A DNA stretch of 64,000 nt from an uncultured Desulfospira sp. (GCA_963663165.1 OY760175.1:4224001-4288000); one strand, 5' to 3'; shown: positions 52,557-61,403, numbered from the stretch's first letter. The notes: generated by a model from the sequence alone, not told the origin. Program-made: numbers and translations.

Positions 52557-52669
52557 TTATCTTGGTTCCGTGTCTGGTCGAAAAATATCAATTTTGGTTT
52601 CAAGGCATTTTTTAAGAGATTGGTCATAGACGCCAACGCTATACCAGGAATCAGGTTTTTGATACAAAT
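52557..52669 (-). pseudogene. brxL: Detached 3' end of brxL (last 36 codons plus stop)
   Basis: Translates to LYQKPDSWYSVGVYDQSLKKCLETKIDIFRPDTEPR*, which joins ...IKIGRGLD in frame when 52670-56875 and one ACAAAT are removed. Confidence 0.9.
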
Positions 52670-52807
52670 TGAGAATGGTCACAGAAAATCATGGAAAAAT
52701 TGAAGATAATTTGCAAGATATGTCAGGTTTGAGGCAGAAGTTCCCTTGTTTATCTCGCAAATAATCGTGAAACTCCTGCCTCCCCACCCAATAACAGGGC
52801 AGGAGAT

Positions 52808-53395
52808 ATGCTATCAGAAGTTCTAAAAAGCGAAAGTCTTTTTTGGAATCTATACAAAATAGATCTGGCAACAGCCGAACGTTATAGACAGATGAAGTGC
52901 CCCCACTGCCAGGGACCGTTGTATTATGCCAATTATCTGCGCAAACCCAGGGGGGAGCCTGAAGGGTTGTCTGAAGAATGTTTTTTACAATTCAGTTTAT
53001 GCTGCGGAAGGGAAGGCTGCCGACGGCGTTTGATCCCGCCAACCTGCCGTTTCCTTGGTAAAAACATTTACTGGTATGCGGCCATTCTGACGATTGTGTC
53101 CGACTGGCAGAACCAATCTGTAGGTATCACGATGTCCAGGTTTGCTGAAACAATCGGTATCTCCCGCAACACCCTTAGACGCTGGGTCGGTTTGTTTAAA
53201 GAAATATTTCCAACAAGCGCTCAATGGAAGAAAATCCGGGGCCGAGTGCCTGCAAGCGTGAAAAATGACAGTCTTCCGGCAAGTTTGGTCAACTTCTATC
53301 TGCATCAACAGGCATCCATCAAAGAAACGTTGATCTCCTGTTTGTCATTCTTGTCTCAAGGCAATGAAATATCACAAAAAATAAGGGCCGGGTAA
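52808..53395 (+). CDS. Transposon ORF1: Cys-rich (CPHC...CC...C) protein with a C-terminal HTH-like segment
   Basis: CPHC.G.L..ANY.RKPRG, FSLCC..EGCRRR and IGISRNTLRRW; AGGAG Shine-Dalgarno. Confidence 0.8.
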   Translation: MLSEVLKSESLFWNLYKIDLATAERYRQMKCPHCQGPLYYANYLRKPRGEPEGLSEECFLQFSLCCGREGCRRRLIPPTCRFLGKNIYWYAAILTIVSDWQNQSVGITMSRFAETIGISRNTLRRWVGLFKEIFPTSAQWKKIRGRVPASVKNDSLPASLVNFYLHQQASIKETLISCLSFLSQGNEISQKIRAG

Positions 53396-53510
53396 TCTCA
53401 CGCAGAAGATGGGCGTGGCCTTGGGCGATCAACTGTTCTATCAAAGGGGCCGGGATTTTTATCAGCATTCCGCTGAAAATTTTAACTTAAAATTGAAAGG
53501 ACCCCGGCCT

Positions 53511-54956
53511 ATGAACAGTAAAAACCAAAGTCCGGTTGATAAATGGGCTTTGTTTCGCTTCTCAGTCGTTGGTGGTTTGCTGGCAAATCCGCCGGCCAAG
53601 GGTGAGCTGCGTAAGGAACTGGAAAAGCTTTCCAATCAGATTTACACCCATCCCATCACGAACGAATCGACGGTATTTCATTTTTCAACTATTGAAAGCT
53701 GGTATTACAAGGCAAAAAATGCCCAGGACCCCATCATTGCTTTAGGACGGAAAGTTCGTTCAGACTATGGCGGTTCAATTGTATTCACGCCTGAACTGAT
53801 CCGGATGCTGGGCAGACAATACCGGACCTATCCGAACTGGAGCTACAAACTGCACGCAGATAATTTCGCAGCAGAACTTCAAGAAAAAGCCAATTCAGTA
53901 TCGATACCATCCTATGCCAGTGTCCGGCGGCGGATGGTCGAAAGAGGGTGGACCAGGAAACCCTCAGCCAAGAAAAAACAGACAGCGGGCATGAAAACTG
54001 CCGCAACGCGGTTCGAAAGCCATGAGATCCGTGGATATGAAGCAGAATGTGTTCACAGCCTGTGGCATCTGGATTTTCATGAAGGCAGTCTGCGGGTGGT
54101 GGATAACAACGGTAACTGGTATACGCCCAAAGCCTTATGTATTCTTGACGACCACTCCCGCCTGTGCTGCCACATCCAATGGTATTCAGGAGAAACCACC
54201 CAGGATTTGATTCATGGATTGACCCAGGCCTTTTTCAAAAGGGGGCTTCCCAGGGCACTGATGACGGACAACGGATCTGCCATGACCTCCCATGAGTTTT
54301 GCAACGGGCTTAAGAAAACAGGGATACTTCATGAAACGACATTGCCCTACAGCCCTTATCAAAACGGTAAGCAGGAAGCCTTTTGGGGCACCCTTGAAGG
54401 CAGATTGATGGCCATGCTGACCCGGGTGGACCCTCTGACACTGGAATATCTCAATCACCGCAGTCAGGCTTGGGTCGAGATGGAATATAACAAAACCAGG
54501 CATAGTGACATCGGCACATCTCCTGTTCAACGCATGCTTGAAGGCAAAGATGTTTCCCGGCCGGCACCGGATGAAGAACAATTACGTTTCGCCTTTACAG
54601 TTTGCGAAGTCAGAAATCAGCGCAAGTCTGACGGTACCGTGTCCATCAACGGGGTAAGATTTGAGATCCCTTCCCGGTTTCACCATATCCCTCGGTTACA
54701 TGTCTGCTTTGCCAATTGGGATAAATCCATGGCCTGGCTCATGGACCAGAGAACCGGCAAACAGATTGCGCCGATCTACCCCCAAGACAAAATCAAAAAT
54801 GCTTCAGGAAAACGAAAGATCAAGTCGAGACCTGAACATACCATTCTACCGGATGAAACATTGAAAGAATCCGAGCCTGCATTATTAAGAAAACTGATGG
54901 CCGAGTATGCCCAAAGCGGCATGCCCCCAGCCTATCTGCCCAAAGGAGAATCATGA
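53511..54956 (+). CDS. DDE transposase/integrase (rve core with a Mu-transposase-like C-terminal domain)
   Basis: LWHLDFH, ILDDHSR, MTDNGSA, NGKQEAFW and DGTVSINGVRFEIP motifs. Confidence 0.92.
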   Translation: MNSKNQSPVDKWALFRFSVVGGLLANPPAKGELRKELEKLSNQIYTHPITNESTVFHFSTIESWYYKAKNAQDPIIALGRKVRSDYGGSIVFTPELIRMLGRQYRTYPNWSYKLHADNFAAELQEKANSVSIPSYASVRRRMVERGWTRKPSAKKKQTAGMKTAATRFESHEIRGYEAECVHSLWHLDFHEGSLRVVDNNGNWYTPKALCILDDHSRLCCHIQWYSGETTQDLIHGLTQAFFKRGLPRALMTDNGSAMTSHEFCNGLKKTGILHETTLPYSPYQNGKQEAFWGTLEGRLMAMLTRVDPLTLEYLNHRSQAWVEMEYNKTRHSDIGTSPVQRMLEGKDVSRPAPDEEQLRFAFTVCEVRNQRKSDGTVSINGVRFEIPSRFHHIPRLHVCFANWDKSMAWLMDQRTGKQIAPIYPQDKIKNASGKRKIKSRPEHTILPDETLKESEPALLRKLMAEYAQSGMPPAYLPKGES

Positions 54957-55780
54957 ACAACAAACAGCTTCTGGCTTATTACGGCCTTAAATGGAATCCT
55001 TTTTTGTCCAATATCCCCGTGGAGGCTTTATGGCATCCGCCATTGATGAACAGTTTTATTTTTCGTCTTGAGAATATGACCCTGAACGGGGGCTTTGCTT
55101 TGATCAGCGGGGACCCTGGCCTTGGCAAATCCAAGGCGTTGCAGATGATTGCCCAAAAGTTCGGTAAACTTGACGAGGTAGTTGTCGGGGTAATGGAACG
55201 TCCCCAAAGCAGTGTCGGAGACTTTTACCGGGAAATGGGAGTTTTGTTTGGTGTCAATTTAAGCCCTGCCAACCGGTATGGCGGGTTCAAGGATCTTCGG
55301 GAGCGCTGGAGGCATCATGTAAAAACCACCTTGTTCCGGCCCATCCTGCTCATAGATGAAGCCCAGGAGATGCTGACCGGATGCTTAAATGAACTGCGTT
55401 TGTTGAACAGCGCGGACTTTGACTCCCAAAACCTGTTGACCACCGTGATTTGCGGCGATGACCGGCTCCCGGAACGGTTCAGATCAAGATCCCTGGTATC
55501 GCTGGGAAGCCGGATGCAGTTCCGGTTGACGCTGCTTCCCTATGTCCGGGATGACCTGCTGGATTACATGGATCACAGCCTGAACCAGGCCGGCGCCCCG
55601 CACTTAATGACGAAAACTCTGATCAGGACCCTTGCAGACCATTGCGCCGGCAACCTGCGGGTTCTTAACAGTATGGCCGCAGACCTGCTGGCTGCGGGGA
55701 TTGAGAAAGAACTCAATCAATTGGACGAAAAACTTTTTATGGAAGTCTATTCCAGACAGCCGCCCAATAAAAAATCATAG
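54953..55780 (+). CDS. ExeA/MuB/TnsC-like AAA+ ATPase
   Basis: YGLKWNPF, Walker A GDPGLGKS, Walker B LLIDEAQ and AGNLRVLN; ATGA overlap with the transposase. Confidence 0.9.
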   Translation: MNNKQLLAYYGLKWNPFLSNIPVEALWHPPLMNSFIFRLENMTLNGGFALISGDPGLGKSKALQMIAQKFGKLDEVVVGVMERPQSSVGDFYREMGVLFGVNLSPANRYGGFKDLRERWRHHVKTTLFRPILLIDEAQEMLTGCLNELRLLNSADFDSQNLLTTVICGDDRLPERFRSRSLVSLGSRMQFRLTLLPYVRDDLLDYMDHSLNQAGAPHLMTKTLIRTLADHCAGNLRVLNSMAADLLAAGIEKELNQLDEKLFMEVYSRQPPNKKS

Positions 55781-55789
55781 GAGAACAAT

Positions 55790-55972
55790 ATGGGTATTTA
55801 TGATGATCCGGACATGAAACTGGAAGAAATTACACAGGAATTGGAACATTTTATCCTGGATATGGTCCTTGCCGGACTTGAAAACTTGAATATGGAATAT
55901 CGGGCCTTCAGGCAATTCCAGAAACAAAGGCTCACGGAAAAGAACCGTCATAAAGAACACGAGCCGTTTTAA
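55790..55972 (+). CDS. Small hypothetical protein inside the transposon
   Basis: 60 aa, AGGAG Shine-Dalgarno, co-directional with its neighbours. Confidence 0.55.
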   Translation: MGIYDDPDMKLEEITQELEHFILDMVLAGLENLNMEYRAFRQFQKQRLTEKNRHKEHEPF

Positions 55973-56009
55973 ACGTACGCCCGGACTCTAAAGGTCCGGG
56001 CCTGCCTCA

Positions 56010-56798
56010 ATGGAAAAAATACTATGGAAAATCGGCAATTATTTTAAGCACCGCTTCAGCCTGGCAGTTCTTGATGAAATTAAGGGCCGGTGGCCCGTTC
56101 TCCCCTCTTGTAAAAACATCCCTTATCTTAAAGCTGAAAATGCCGGAGGAAGGCACATCCTGATCAGACCTGATCCTGTTATTGAGCCTTATTATTTTCT
56201 TGCCGACGATTTAAACATTGACCTGCTTATCCGGCATCATCAATCCATATCAAACCGCTTTAAACCAGGCAGGATGGTTATGGAAACATCTCCCGGCAAT
56301 TATCAAATTTGGATTCACAGTGACCGTCCGTTAAGCCTTCCCGAAAAAAAGTATTGGTTGGAAAACATGCACAGTGATCCCGGCGCCGACCCGAAAAACA
56401 GGTGGGGCAGATGCCCCGGGTTCAGGAACAGAAAAGCAAAACATAGAACGCCTTCAGGACAATACCCTTTGGCAAAGCTATTATGGGTGGACTGGAAATG
56501 CCAGGCTATTGTCCCTGAAATAGAATTATCCTCCCGACCTCAAGAAGTCTTTTCCCATCAACCCCGGGGGGGAGTGTGCCATAACGGTAATATTTCCCGC
56601 TCCCTCTATGATAAGGGTGACGAATCTGCCACTGATTTTGCATATGCTCTGGCCCTCTATAGAAGAGGTTTTTCACGAATGGAAATTTACAATCGCATTA
56701 TCAATGAAAGGCAGGATTGGATTAATCATGCGGATGAACGAAAAAAAACACAGTATCTGATCAGGACATTACAAAAAGCTGAAAAAATTATCAGTTAA
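56010..56798 (+). CDS. RepB'-family (RSF1010-type) DNA primase
   Basis: LADDL, ETSPGNYQIW and DPGAD...GRCPGFRNRK catalytic-domain motifs; C-terminal helical bundle GDESATDFAYALAL...YLIRTLQKA. Confidence 0.85.
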   Translation: MEKILWKIGNYFKHRFSLAVLDEIKGRWPVLPSCKNIPYLKAENAGGRHILIRPDPVIEPYYFLADDLNIDLLIRHHQSISNRFKPGRMVMETSPGNYQIWIHSDRPLSLPEKKYWLENMHSDPGADPKNRWGRCPGFRNRKAKHRTPSGQYPLAKLLWVDWKCQAIVPEIELSSRPQEVFSHQPRGGVCHNGNISRSLYDKGDESATDFAYALALYRRGFSRMEIYNRIINERQDWINHADERKKTQYLIRTLQKAEKIIS

Positions 56799-56875
56799 AA
56801 TCGGGCTCTCTTGGCCTCCGGGAAAGCCCTTATTTACCATGAAACGTTGTCCATGAATTATCGTGATTGCTCTCA

Positions 56876-58868
56876 ACAAATCCAGGCCGCGGCCGATTTT
56901 AATTGTCCAGCCATTATCGATCCTGATTTCACGGTCATGGAGATGTTCGTTTATTTTGATATCAAGCGCGATATCCAGTTCTAAAAGGCTTTGTTTTACA
57001 TCGTTCAGCCGGTCTGAAAGTTCTTTTAGGTCTGTCTGGTCATCGTAGCTCGTTAAAAGTGAAATTTTCTGGACTGTTGGTGTTTTAATCACCGCCTCAC
57101 AAAACCGGATGAAATTTTGAACCTGGTGGTTTGCCCGGATATATGGATCTTCTATCTCTATGGTTTTAGCTCCTGTCAGGTACGGGGATAAAATGGATTC
57201 ATAGCTGTATCCCGTTGCGCCATAGTTGATGGTAAAATGTTGCTCCCGAGGTTCCTCTTTTATGAGGAGTTCCGCGCCGGGTTCTTCTTCCGGTTCAGGC
57301 AGTTTTAGCTGATCCACCGAAGCAATTTTTTGTTTTTCCGCACTTTTCTGCCGGCTGTTTTCCTTTGTTCCTTCACTGCCGTGGATATCCTTTCTGACAG
57401 GTTCCTGGGTGGCGTCTGCTGTTTTTGATTCCGGGCAATAAACAACAATTTCTTGGTCTTTGCTGTTGATATACGACAAATTGATTTTTGCAAATTCATC
57501 ATCTGATTTGCGTTTGTTCATCTGCTCTTTGACACGCCTTCGGCATTCAATGGCATAGGAGACATATTCTTCAAATTCTTCATCTGAAACATTACCCGCC
57601 GGATGAAGGATTTTCAGAAAAGAGGCCACAGTCTTTTTGATGCCTTTTTCATCCCGGCCTTCAACGGATTTGCCAAGGCGAATTCGCTTGCTGACCTCCT
57701 CGTACCGGTTGGTGTGCTTGAGTTGATGGTGAAAGGCTTCGGCAAGATAATCGGTGATAAATCCGTAGTTTTTCGTTAGAAAATCACTGCTGTTTTTGGG
57801 CATTTCCCAGCCGGGCAGATAAAGGGCAAACCTGTCCATCACAGCCAGGTCAAATTCCTTGGGAAGGGGCTGAAAAAGGTCATAAACTTCTGAGTGAACG
57901 ATCTGCTGGACAGACAAGTCAAGGTTGCCCACAAAGGCCATGGATGCATCAGCAATTACCTCAACCCCACGGGAAAACCGGCCGTTGGCCATGAAATCTT
58001 TCATGATCTGAATGGTATCCTGATCCTTGACCTTGATCCCGCCGACTTCATCAAATGCCACGGTGTCCCAGAACCCGACCAGTCCGATTTTTTTCCGCTG
58101 GTTATTATAAAACAAAGTTGCTTTAGTGGCCTGGCCACCGCTGATCAGGGTTGAGTATGGTGAAAATTCACTAAAAAAGTATGACTTGCCGGTACCTCGC
58201 GGTCCAAGCTCAATAAAATTAAAATTGGGTTCAACCAGCGGGAACAATCGGGCTATGAAGTGGAGTTTCAGCCGTGGGGATAAAACCGTTGGTTCCAGCC
58301 CCACGGAACGCAAAATAATATCTATCCACTCATTGCGGGTAAGTTCGTTTCTTCCTTCGCAGTAACGCTCAAAATCGAATCGACTGAGCTGAATCGGGCG
58401 CAGGTCTTCCACATAAAAAGCATAGTCATCTTCTTCAATCTCATTATATGCGATGGTAACTTCCGCCCACAATCCACCCTGGAGCAACCGGTCATTTTCA
58501 TCAAAGTATTTATGGGCAATGGCAATCCGCCTGGAGTCGAAATTCTCTAATGCCGCCCAATGCCTGCGGTCTTTTTCCACATAATTGACGTGGACTTTAT
58601 CAATAAATCTGTATTTCCCTTTGGTCGCCACTTTGGACTGGGCTTTGTTGGCTTCATTGGGACGCACATAATTGTCATTGAGCGTTTCCAGAACCGCCTC
58701 AAGTCCGGCCTGAATTTCTGCCGGTTCATCACTGGCGCAATATCGTGCCAGCAAAAATTCCAGCACAAAGGTGGGCACATTGGTACCTTTTTTGATGCGG
58801 TGGAGCAGATCTTTGCGAACCACCTTTCCGTCAAACACTGAAATCAGTTTTTTATCTAATGCATCCAT
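56876..58868 (-). pseudogene. brxL: BREX BrxL-like ATPase with a C-terminal MIT_C-like domain, interrupted 36 codons before its stop
   Basis: NVPTFVLEFLL, ELGPRGTGKSY, VAFDEV, KDFMANGRFSRG and RRRVKEQ motifs; IEDPYIR...HDREIRIDNGW. The ORF-track tail to 56769 is transposon-derived. Confidence 0.88.
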
Positions 58869-58871
58869 ATT

Positions 58872-61403
58872 TTATACCGTATAATCTGTTTCCAAGTCGA
58901 TCTGGTCATAGGCCGTCATTGTTGTGGGATTCAATGCCTTGATTTTAAATTTGCCTTCAAATTCCATGCTCATTTTAATGGCCACCTTCACTTTCTCACC
59001 GGCCTTAAGCGTAATGACGCCGGTCGCGGGATTTACAGATCCGCCGGGCTTTGCCTCACCCACGACATTGCCTTTCTTGTCATGGGCTTCCAGCAAGATT
59101 TCAAACTCTTTATCAGGTGAAAATAGACTCTGGGAGATCGCCTGCACATCAATGACCGGCAACCTTGTTGTAATCCGTTTTGCGCCATTTTTATAGCTCA
59201 GCTCTATGGAAACATCCTTGTCATCGCCCAAGTTGCTTTGCTTCAACTGCAACTGGATCACCGGCACTACACACTCCTGGAGCGAACACCCACCATGGTA
59301 ATAAAGCAACCCGTCCCTATATGATGCCATGCTCAAAGGTCCGGCAAAACAGTTGTAATCTCCTTGGATACCAGCTTTTTCAGCCTCCACACAAAAGTGA
59401 ACGGCATCTGCCTGACCATCTCCTATCAAGGCCCGGTCATGGATATTCACCCAGTTCCCGGGCAATTTTGTACAGGTATCCCCGGGGCCTGCATGGGTAT
59501 TCATAAAAAATCCATGGTCTGTGGCAATGACCGCCTCTTCAAATCCTGCTTCCTGTAGCTTATGAACCGCCACACGAATTCGTTTAAGCGCATTGGTTAT
59601 TTCCGTGGGTGCCGTATCCGGATTATTTTCAAAATGCGTATCGATTTCCACAGACCTTAATACCAGCAGATCCGTATCCGGACTGATGTCAAAACGTTTT
59701 CGAACAAAATCCTCCAGCCGGGTCTCCTGGAAACGGCTTCCATACTTCTTTTGTATCAAATCCATGCGATGGGCAACATTGGTCACGACAATTCCATTGA
59801 CCTGGGGGGCAAACCCGGCATCGGTTTTGACCAGTTTAAAATCAACAGACGCACCGGGCAAAAGACCTGCCATTCCCACAGGGGTAATACTTGGCAGCTG
59901 CACCAATGCCGGTGTGATTTGTGCCTGGGTGTCTTCCAAAAGCTGCTTTTCCAGTTCAACACCCAGCTCATACCGCAGGGCATCCACCATGATCAAAGCA
60001 ATTTTATGGCCGCTGATTTCAAGTTTCGGGGCCACCATATTATCAAACACCTGGGTGTTCGCCATTCTGCCGGTGACCGGCCAGCCTGTCTGCTGAAAGT
60101 GCCTGGTGAAAAGAGACTGCACTTTTCCCGTGAGTACTCCATATTGCTTTCGCACAAACACCTGAACCGGCGTAAAAATCCCCTGGATATCTTTCCATAC
60201 ATAATCACTGACGGCCTGCTCAAATTCCCGGTGCCTCTGGTCCACCTCCCTGAACCGGCTGATATAAAAGTCAATCAGCGCGTCCATGGATTTCCCATGA
60301 TCCTGCAACGCCCGGTCATTATCCCGGCAGCATTCAATCAGGGTAACAGCAGATCGTAAAAAATCCCACTGGGCCTGGCTTTCTCCTTTGCCATGCCATA
60401 CCGAAGCAGCATGGTTTGAAATGATTCCCCGGGCCTGATCAATATCATCGTCCAGTAAGGCCGATATGGCATTTTTCAAAAAGGTCCGCTCTTCAAAGGG
60501 AAAGGTGTCTTTAATCCCCAGATCCCTGATATGGCTGCATGCCTCAACCAGGTTCAACCCTTGGGATTTGCTTTCTATGGATTCCGCACGCTGGACGTAG
60601 ATATTCTGGGTCCGCCGGTCATTTCGCAGGCGATCGCACAGATCTTCTATCAAAGGTCTGGCAGCCCCTGGTGCATGGGGGACATCGCTTAAACTATCGG
60701 GAAGGGATTCGGGCAGATCAAACATGAATTCGCTGAACAAAAGATAGCGCCACAATTCGTCTGCAATGGAAGACCAGGTTTTCCCTTTTGTTTTCAGGCC
60801 AAGTCCCATGCTGCCCTTTAAAAGGTCTTTTACCTCCCCCACCCAGGCGTCATTTCCTTTAAGCGCATCCAGCTGCCTGTCACTGGGACTGAGCAGGGCA
60901 AACAGGATATCCCGGGTGGATTCCACGGCCAACAACGCCCTCAGGTTGGGCCAGTTGAGACCGCCGCCAATGGCATCAATCACCGCAAAGCCTGGATTTT
61001 CATTTTCCGTGAACACAGCCCGCACCTGGGTGGCATGGTCAGGTTTGGCCTTCAGGCAGATGCTCAAATAAGTGTCCCCGTCACCGTCCGGAAAAATAGC
61101 GCCGCACGCCGGATAGAGCGCAAAGGGATCTCTTTGTTTTTCTTCATCTTCAATGGGTTTGGCTGCCGGCACATAAATCAGCAGCTGTTCTATCTCATTG
61201 CGGCCCAGGGCCGACAGCGCTTCAATGGCTTCGGCCCGGCTGGTGATACTGGAGGGACTTGCATCCACCACCCGGCGCGTGTCATCAGCCATTTCAAGGC
61301 ACAGCTGCCCATAGCGGCCATCCGGGTCATACACGGCTAAAACCTGCGCTTTTTGCAGGCGGGGTATTAATATCTCTTCCTGAATAAAGGCTTTTATGCT
61401 CAT
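58872..61403 (-). CDS. pglZ: BREX PglZ alkaline-phosphatase-domain protein
   Basis: MVDALRYE, LPSITPVGMA, ATDHGF and YYHGGCSLQECVVP motifs. Confidence 0.92.
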   Translation of the reverse strand: MSIKAFIQEEILIPRLQKAQVLAVYDPDGRYGQLCLEMADDTRRVVDASPSSITSRAEAIEALSALGRNEIEQLLIYVPAAKPIEDEEKQRDPFALYPACGAIFPDGDGDTYLSICLKAKPDHATQVRAVFTENENPGFAVIDAIGGGLNWPNLRALLAVESTRDILFALLSPSDRQLDALKGNDAWVGEVKDLLKGSMGLGLKTKGKTWSSIADELWRYLLFSEFMFDLPESLPDSLSDVPHAPGAARPLIEDLCDRLRNDRRTQNIYVQRAESIESKSQGLNLVEACSHIRDLGIKDTFPFEERTFLKNAISALLDDDIDQARGIISNHAASVWHGKGESQAQWDFLRSAVTLIECCRDNDRALQDHGKSMDALIDFYISRFREVDQRHREFEQAVSDYVWKDIQGIFTPVQVFVRKQYGVLTGKVQSLFTRHFQQTGWPVTGRMANTQVFDNMVAPKLEISGHKIALIMVDALRYELGVELEKQLLEDTQAQITPALVQLPSITPVGMAGLLPGASVDFKLVKTDAGFAPQVNGIVVTNVAHRMDLIQKKYGSRFQETRLEDFVRKRFDISPDTDLLVLRSVEIDTHFENNPDTAPTEITNALKRIRVAVHKLQEAGFEEAVIATDHGFFMNTHAGPGDTCTKLPGNWVNIHDRALIGDGQADAVHFCVEAEKAGIQGDYNCFAGPLSMASYRDGLLYYHGGCSLQECVVPVIQLQLKQSNLGDDKDVSIELSYKNGAKRITTRLPVIDVQAISQSLFSPDKEFEILLEAHDKKGNVVGEAKPGGSVNPATGVITLKAGEKVKVAIKMSMEFEGKFKIKALNPTTMTAYDQIDLETDYTV

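Follow-up and report, generated by a model that had tools for sequence, protein, structure and literature searches.

A Tn6049-type transposon with a RepB'-type primase gene in the genome of an uncultured Desulfospira sp.

The Element and Its Genes

The DNA considered here is a window of 64,000 nt, meaning the whole stretch that was analysed, from the genome of an uncultured Desulfospira sp. (GCA_963663165.1 OY760175.1:4224001-4288000). Positions 52670-56875 of this window are occupied by a transposon of 4,206 bp that begins with TG at 52670, ends with CA at 56875, and carries five co-directional open reading frames (ORFs), the last of which encodes a RepB'-type DNA primase. A sequence-only reading of the same DNA had proposed an element with TG...CA ends, inverted repeats matching at 20 of 29 positions, an ACAAAT duplication, and five co-directional ORFs; all of these are present, and Pfam supports the transposase, the ATPase, and the primase with scores above the cut-offs for rve, AAA_22, and RepB_primase together with RepB_primase_C. 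Judged by its genes, the core architecture is that of Tn6049, a type named in 2010 but barely studied, to which the RepB' primase behind the ATPase gene is a new addition. The suggestion that the architecture did not belong to a described family has therefore to be given up for the core.

The resemblance to Tn6049 can be followed gene by gene. In tblastn searches of plasmid records, the transposase is 47% identical to its Tn6049 counterpart along 90% of the query (E 1e-131), a match found in 19 records of Cupriavidus and in Pseudomonas aeruginosa pHS87a; the ATPase is 50% identical, and the 181-aa first ORF of Tn6049 is 32% identical to that of our element. Further relatives come from a transposase scan of one genome per prokaryote species, which provided 78 loci from the best 80 stretches of 130 relatives.

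The first core gene (52808..53395, + strand) encodes a 195-aa protein with a zinc (Zn) ribbon and a helix-turn-helix (HTH), and has a homologue in 75 of the 78 related loci. Residues C31, C34, C65, C66, and C71 are invariant in the family alignment. Its AlphaFold2 (AF2) model has a predicted local distance difference test (pLDDT) score of 90, and fold searches gave generic HTH matches only (Z <= 4.5), with none for the whole protein; the nearest Atlas clusters are partly DUF6431.

The DDE transposase follows as a 515-aa ORF (53409..54956, + strand; Pfam rve, 3.2e-13). Its start is probably the ATG at 53511 (481 aa) rather than 53409, because GAAAGGA stands upstream and relatives have stop codons 5' of that point. 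In the numbering of the 515-aa ORF, the catalytic residues D222, D287, and E323 are invariant in 45 relatives. The best NCBIfam model is IS481, at 106 bits against a cut-off of 224, which is not reached; the IS21 model gives 38 bits (cut-off 160). Pfam finds rve plus a weak rve_3 only, without a Mu-transposase C-terminal domain, and a sequence search of PDB returned only weak retroviral integrase cores.

The gene for the AAA+ ATPase (54953..55780, + strand) has a start codon that overlaps the transposase stop (ATGA). The protein matches AAA_22 and not PF01695 (IstB_IS21), and nothing relevant was found by sequence in PDB. Its AF2 model (pLDDT 84.8) was compared by Foldseek with known structures, the matches being Cdc6/ORC (1e-11), the MuB filament 8XVB (5.4e-11; template modelling (TM) score 0.71 on the target), and TnsC 7PLH (2e-9; TM 0.76). 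By these matches the ATPase is a DNA-bound helper of the Mu/Tn7 kind.

Next comes a helical protein of 60 aa (55790..55972, + strand) that ends in HEPF, a tail resembling the C-terminal tip of single-stranded DNA-binding protein (SSB). Tn6049, primase-less relatives, and RepB'-type relatives all have homologous small ORFs after the ATPase gene. When 11 of them are aligned, Phe is the sole invariant residue besides the start; it is the last residue in nine, and Pro or acidic residues stand before it (HEPF, EPDF, VKYPF, DDVFPF, DNDF). The host's single SSB ends in DDDIPF. The tail may therefore serve to recruit replication proteins that bind SSB.

The primase gene is the last of the element (56010..56798, + strand), and its stop codon lies 77 bp inside the right end. 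It encodes 262 aa of the archaeo-eukaryotic fold, with a catalytic and a C-terminal helical domain, and matches the RSF1010 RepB' structures PDB 3H20/3H25 at 1e-11. The Pfam matches are PF16793 (3.8e-15, 56.7 bits against 24.3) and PF22448 (1.1e-7, 32.0 bits against 26.1). Residues D66, D67, D123, and R134 align to D77, D78, D134, and R145 of RSF1010 RepB', which we take to be its catalytic residues; the four are invariant in 36 family members, and Q99 is nearly so. These residues agree with PMC5862659, in which RepB'-like enzymes are described as having Gln in motif II and needing an Arg in motif IV. The enzyme thus appears catalytically intact. Similarly, its ORF is intact in all ten full copies of the element in the genome, and all 11 PF16793 matches of that genome fall within copies of the element. 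The primase therefore moves with the unit, as ten intact copies and one interrupted copy attest, and the proposal that it forms part of the mobile unit is borne out.

The start codon of the primase lacks a Shine-Dalgarno sequence. A 9-bp G+C-rich hairpin (55979..56001, + strand; z = -4.0 against shuffles) ends 8 nt before the ATG, and the leaders of the primase genes in nine of nine relatives have a hairpin at the same place, ending 5-10 nt before the start and built from at least six different stem sequences. The stems covary, with the limit that two stem types were not aligned in register by MAFFT. We considered the hairpin as a priming site specific to the primase and rejected this, since the primase-less relatives L016 and L038 have one after the small ORF too, in L016 followed by a U-rich run as in a terminator. 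It may act as a terminator or an attenuator and so set how strongly the primase is expressed. A scan of the element for promoters and terminators gave results at chance level.

One further observation concerns this region. In a contig of public run X5 (record 23, 1,148 bases) only 55985-56165 is matched, which covers the hairpin and runs ~155 bases into the primase gene, with unrelated sequence on both sides; this hints at the module in another context in a related strain.

RepB' primases of this family are uncommon in the sampled genomes, being found in 8 of the 201 from the order and in 5 of the 401 from the phylum (own genome included). In metagenomes the family is large, with 563 proteins at E <= 0.001 out of 760 candidates; most come from contigs of 1-5 kb, the size that repeats would give. 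A scan with the single primase query found only six close loci.

Among the proteins of the element, Pfam finds no resolvase, TnsA-type nuclease, or TniQ, and no DNA polymerase domain in the five ORFs. A search of the element for a RepC-like initiator gene and for origin-like repeats was negative. Complex prediction for the transposase and ATPase with the primase as partner gave a score of 0.00.

Ends and Copies

The left terminal inverted repeat (TGAGAATGGTCAC...ATCATGG; 52670..52698, + strand), presumably the transposase binding site, agrees with the right one (56847..56875, - strand) in 20 of its 29 bases (binomial P about 8e-7). All measured related units, those of other phyla included, have the end motif TGAG..CAC(G)ATAATCnATGG in common. 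Directly outside the repeats stand the paired target-site duplications ACAAAT at 52664..52669 and 56876..56881.

Copies were searched for in the window's own genome, a single contig of 6.74 Mb. Nine further full-length copies of 4,206 bp have the same end bases in unrelated flanks, so that the precise bounds first proposed from the window hold; one of them spans the contig's origin. In total, the genome has ten intact copies and an eleventh that is broken by two nested insertions. The ten are flanked by duplications of 6, 5, 5, 3, 4, 6, 3, 5, 6, and 5 bp. Looking for further copies with distinct duplications, as the sequence-only reading had advised, thus brings the full copies to ten, with repeats of 3-6 bp; its 6-bp duplication stands for the copy in the window and falls as a fixed length. 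Since relatives in other genomes likewise have 3-6 bp, and Tn6049 of pHS87a has 4 bp (excerpt of PMC4739549), the variable stagger is a family trait.

All ten intact copies are chromosomal simple insertions with flanking repeats, and all five ORFs are open in each. They fall into three sequence types: three have the sequence of the window's copy, six are identical to each other and differ from the first type at 112 sites, and one (G000:C1:3867756-3871961) is an exact mosaic in which these differences are divided 74 and 38, with a middle tract of the window's type. A mosaic of two subfamilies indicates gene conversion between copies. Between the two types, the ratio of non-synonymous to synonymous change (pN/pS) is 0.23 for the Zn/HTH gene, 0.14 for the transposase, 0.17 for the ATPase, 0.45 for the 60-aa ORF, and 0.27 for the primase (eight substitutions). 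Recent activity of the transposon is supported. In public runs, depth within the element exceeds that of its flanks about 10-19-fold, an excess that fits about 11 copies.

As a side observation, 10 of the 11 copies lie on the + strand of the contig (two-sided P about 0.01), although by GC skew (origin ~3.95 Mb, terminus ~0.7 Mb) both replichores have copies. Relative to the replication fork, six copies are co-directional and five head-on, which makes no pattern.

What Follows the ATPase Gene in Relatives

The transposase gene is accompanied on one side by the Zn/HTH gene in 75 of the 78 loci, and on the other by the ATPase gene, likewise in 75. The misses are contig ends or rearrangements, and the three of the Zn/HTH gene are all cut by contig ends. 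What follows the ATPase gene, which we call the slot, could be resolved in 59 of these 78 loci, a set picked by likeness to the window transposase; the remaining 19 are contig ends and truncations.

The commonest occupant, in 33 loci, is an AAA_25 protein with a C-terminal winged helix, which in ten of them is followed by a CHC2 primase Zn-ribbon protein of ~110 aa. Seven loci have a RepB' primase, and two a DnaG-type protein (CHC2 Zn ribbon plus Toprim). In 17 loci there are small ORFs only, with the right end within 800 bp, and 12 of these are copies in one Desulfobacter genome. Unrelated cargo, which would have spoken for a passenger gene at this position, was found in none of the 59. A replication-type gene thus occupies the slot in 42 of 59 resolvable loci or, counted by assembly, in 28 of 34 observations. 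RepB' is not the usual slot gene among relatives, with 7 of 59.

The AAA_25 protein has a sole match by sequence in PDB, the RepA helicase of RSF1010 (7.6e-10), and the DnaG-type protein, going by its matches to bacterial DnaG primases (6.7e-19), is predicted to be a primase of that type. The slot genes lie inside the mobile units, as multi-copy comparison and terminal repeats indicate. Units with AAA_25 measure 4,695, 4,227, and 4,167 bp in three elements, those with the DnaG-type gene 4,249 and 4,201 bp, and primase-less ones 3,541 and 3,464 bp. For one locus with a divergent RepB' (L042), the end search did not find the element ends. This locus and L044 are sister elements in one acidobacterial assembly, the former with the divergent RepB' and the latter with the DnaG-type Zn-ribbon and Toprim protein. 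Tn6049-type loci were found in several phyla.

History of the Primase and the Transposase

Two trees were inferred, one for the transposase with 61 rows by a quick method, and one for the primase with 20 rows by a careful method. In the former, the window element belongs to a fully supported Desulfobacteraceae clade of 14 rows. Elements with RepB' are basal and spread through this clade, and primase-less forms from Desulfobacter and Desulfobacula are nested in it, for which one loss of the primase is the simplest reading. The elements with AAA_25 make up the other main clade; the placement of Tn6049 within it is unsure because of a long branch.

In the primase tree, 13 primases of Tn6049-like elements and one remnant form one clade with support of 98/98, and the primases of two IS21-like contigs and of other contexts lie outside it. 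The identities of primase and transposase fall together (98/97, 78/90, 65/71, 62/70, 61/70, and 66/65%). Comparison of the two trees, a check that the sequence-only reading had put forward, therefore supports co-divergence: the primase was inherited with the element across a Desulfobacterales clade.

In seven other genomes, 11 places with the primase were examined. Three are Tn6049-like elements or remnants and two are IS21-like units; in the rest, the gene stands beside an SSB gene, a DUF5906 helicase with HNH, or a tyrosine recombinase, or is found in degenerate fragments. The IS21-like units (L096, L097) belong to two further genomes within the order; both lie on contigs 4.4-4.6 kb long and have the gene order primase-ParB_N-IstA-IstB. 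A second transposon family with an AAA+ helper has thus taken up the same primase group.

Insertion Site and Related Sequences

The element interrupts brxL, a gene on the - strand. To its right lies the 5' part (56876..58868), with BrxL_N, BrxL_ATPase, and positions 1-115 of MIT_C according to Pfam, and to its left the severed 3' end (52557..52669), which matches MIT_C profile positions 111-142 (E 2.3e-7) and joins in frame. The left piece of 40 aa corresponds to the last 32 model positions of MIT_C, and the truncated gene covers the first 115. In-silico excision of the element with one ACAAAT restores a brxL frame of 699+ aa, and removal of 5 bp fails to do so. Frame restoration and the complementary MIT_C matches indicate that the element inserted in the Lon-like brxL of a BREX defence locus and cut off its tail.

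This BREX locus occupies 56769-61403 (- strand) and 52557-52669 of the window, with PglZ directly upstream of brxL. The brxL product has an unusual C-terminal MIT_C (phospholipase D-like) domain, of which the transposon removed the last ~35 residues. The defence system may have been disabled or altered by the insertion.

Elsewhere in the genome there is a gene-less element of 373 bp in three copies (G000:C1:5266572-5266944, 2726987-2727359, and 4409221-4409593). It has near-perfect 26-bp inverted repeats with the transposon's end motif and 5-bp duplications (TCTGA, CAGAT, and CTTGT), and is probably a miniature inverted-repeat transposable element mobilised in trans by a transposase of the window's type.

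The broken eleventh copy (L105, G000:C1:4928500-4940000) contains two inserts, each with a 6-bp overlap of element sequence. One, a unit of 4,063 bp, has three tyrosine recombinase genes in tandem (recombinase-in-trio type), and the other is a 1,901-bp insertion sequence (IS) that encodes a DUF4277 + DDE_Tnp_1 transposase. In addition, both ends of the contig lie inside a copy of the element and overlap by 11 bp, from which it follows that the assembly was circularised within a repeat.

How the Primase May Serve the Element

The best explanation that we can offer, which we believe and doubt in about equal measure, is an active Tn6049-type element that moves in a replication-dependent manner with the primase as a helper of its lineage. 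A replication-dependent route is favoured by a catalytic core of the IS481/IS3 kind, for which an excerpt of PMC6794481 gives the copy-paste view, and by eleven copies that include identical ones. Within it, copy-out-paste-in would be preferred over Mu-like cointegration, because all copies are simple insertions with flanking repeats and the element has no resolvase and no TnsA-type nuclease.

In such a scheme, the transposase and the ATPase would carry out strand transfer, and DNA synthesis through the element would begin at a fork-like intermediate with the aid of functions that the element encodes. The SSB-like tail of the small protein could recruit SSB-binding proteins of the host. The primase, in the way that RepB' works on RSF1010 without need of a helicase, could prime the displaced single strand, and the element would then depend less on the restart primosome of its host. 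In sister elements a DnaG-type primase or a RepA-type helicase would answer the same problem, and elements with the small protein alone would rely on the host.

Our main argument is the content of the slot. It holds an SSB-tail-like protein, two unrelated primases, or a helicase, and nothing else in the resolvable loci, which suggests that its genes serve the step at which replication starts. A role of the primase in the replication step of transposition is therefore plausible. The replication-linked role proposed from the window alone gains from the DnaG-type and RepA-like genes in the same slot and from unrelated cargo in 0 of 59 loci; as an essential function it does not stand, since primase-less relatives are equally prolific.

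It is important to set out what weighs against this explanation. An ATPase of the Mu/Tn7 kind fits a Mu-like replicative route as well as copy-out-paste-in. As the leader hairpin is not specific to the primase, there is no candidate priming (ssi-like) site. With four synonymous and four non-synonymous changes behind its pN/pS of 0.27, the primase has a thin selection estimate. In the genome no right end lies within 60 bp of a left end, as a circle or tandem junction would require, and public contigs from eight runs, none listed as RNA, contain neither a junction of element ends nor an empty site. The slot census is a biased sample, in which many loci are within-genome copies. The gene-less 373-bp derivative reached three copies, one Desulfobacter genome has 12 primase-less loci, and Tn6049, itself primase-less, has 12 copies in CH34 according to an excerpt of PMC2864759. 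With primase-less relatives equally prolific at 12 copies, the primase is a helper at most and not a requirement of the family.

The same prolific members without a slot gene (the 12 Desulfobacter loci and, in the excerpt of PMC2864759, Tn6049) would suit an explanation that we consider unlikely although it survives better than the other alternatives, namely that the primase is dispensable cargo, kept for the host or for another mobile element (for example, for damage-tolerant repriming or for plasmid or phage replication) and not for movement of the transposon. The non-transposon contexts, in which RepB' primases stand beside SSB, a DUF5906 helicase, or a tyrosine recombinase, would likewise make it a promiscuous mobile-element gene. 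However, random cargo is not expected to be limited to replication-initiation proteins, as in 42 of 59 loci against no unrelated gene, and three unrelated protein types share one position. The co-divergence of primase and transposase also speaks against cargo, as does the uptake of the same primase by Tn6049-like and IS21-like families, both of which combine a DDE enzyme with an AAA+ helper.

RSF1010 RepB' primes complementary-strand synthesis at single-stranded hairpin (ssi) sites. With this precedent, the primase could serve an extrachromosomal or transfer stage, in which a single-stranded or circular copy is made double-stranded, for example once it has entered a new cell as a single strand, by conjugation or otherwise, or while an excised circle replicates briefly in the manner of a plasmid. 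In some relatives a RepA-like helicase and a primase-type Zn ribbon occur together, two thirds of an IncQ-type replication set, and the family is present in several phyla. Nevertheless we regard this as improbable: the element has neither a RepC-like initiator gene nor origin-like repeats, double-stranded ends are the substrate of rve-type transposases, every copy is a simple insertion in the chromosome, and no circle junctions were found in the genome or in public contigs. A non-catalytic role, with the primase binding DNA or regulating as a subunit of the transposition complex, is scarcely credible, since the four catalytic positions, and with them the Gln of motif II, have been conserved throughout the 36 members of the family.

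A broader proposal can be made, which we put forward tentatively and with more doubt than belief. The Tn6049 type may be a widespread and unrecognised class of bacterial DDE elements with their own hardware for starting replication, in which an interchangeable slot (SSB-tail mimic, RepB' or DnaG-type primase, or RepA-type helicase with or without Zn ribbon) would allow a fork to be primed at the transposition intermediate without host PriA, with the Cdc6/MuB-like ATPase as loader, and IS21-like elements would have adopted the same primase independently. Such units of 3.5-4.7 kb are currently annotated as an 'IS481 family transposase' with unrelated hypothetical genes. To our knowledge, the start of a fork at the ends of replicative or copy-out transposons is understood only for phage Mu. 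The slot swaps point to fork start as the problem to solve and provide ready-made comparisons for testing. Should the proposal be true, RepB'-type primases would gain a second habitat besides IncQ-like plasmids.

Comparison With Known Systems

The closest known element is Tn6049 of Cupriavidus metallidurans CH34. Its four ORFs match the first four of our element one-to-one and in the same co-directional order, its last small ORF ends in Phe, and it shares TG... ends, short flanking repeats, and the multicopy state. Excerpts of PMC4739549 and PMC2864759 describe it as 3.5 kb long, with an always present 'GspA-like' ATPase gene, 12-bp inverted repeats, and 4-bp direct repeats in pHS87a; these excerpts give no mechanism or gene functions. 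The window element differs in its 4,206 bp and in having, after the small ORF and before the right end, a primase of 262 aa, where Tn6049 has no replication gene. In full-text searching, whose scope excluded subscription journals, ISfinder, and TnCentral, we found no description of a primase- or helicase-bearing Tn6049-type element. A survey of archaeo-eukaryotic primases in mobile elements (PMC5862659) has 11 RepB' members, and the word 'transposon' is absent from it.

The primase resembles RSF1010 RepB' (IncQ) in both Pfam domains and in the aligned catalytic residues; identity is about 25-30%, for the catalytic domain only. RSF1010 RepB' is part of a replicon on a plasmid, together with RepA, RepC, and ssi sites that are defined, whereas the window primase is alone in a transposon in which no ssi-like site was identified.

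Like MuA/MuB of Mu and TnsB-TnsC of Tn7 and the CRISPR-associated transposons (CAST), the element combines a DDE enzyme with a DNA-binding AAA+ helper of the same predicted fold, and has TG..CA ends. Unlike them, its transposase is IS481/IS3-like, its duplication varies from 3 to 6 bp instead of a fixed 5 bp, and it has no TnsA and no TniQ. Replicative transposition of Mu needs primosome assembly at the strand-transfer fork, by the host restart primosome. Mu recruits the PriA primosome of the host and has no primase in its transposition module, whereas the window element carries one.

With the IS481 family, the element shares the closest curated transposase model and a variable target duplication, and IS481 transposases are thought to act by copy-paste (excerpt of PMC6794481). 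It departs from that family in score (106 against 224 bits) and in being a five-gene unit of 4.2 kb with an ATPase helper instead of the typical single transposase gene. From the IS21 family it is set apart by a helper of AAA_22 and not IstB_IS21 type, and by a transposase that misses the IS21 cut-off.

Finally, casposons and Polintons, the self-synthesizing transposons, likewise have a DNA-replication enzyme aboard. They bring a DNA polymerase and integrases of other kinds (Cas1 for casposons), whereas our element encodes a primase only. If the proposed role of the primase is true, transposons with replication enzymes, so far represented by the polymerase-bearing casposons and Polintons, would extend to ordinary bacterial DDE elements.

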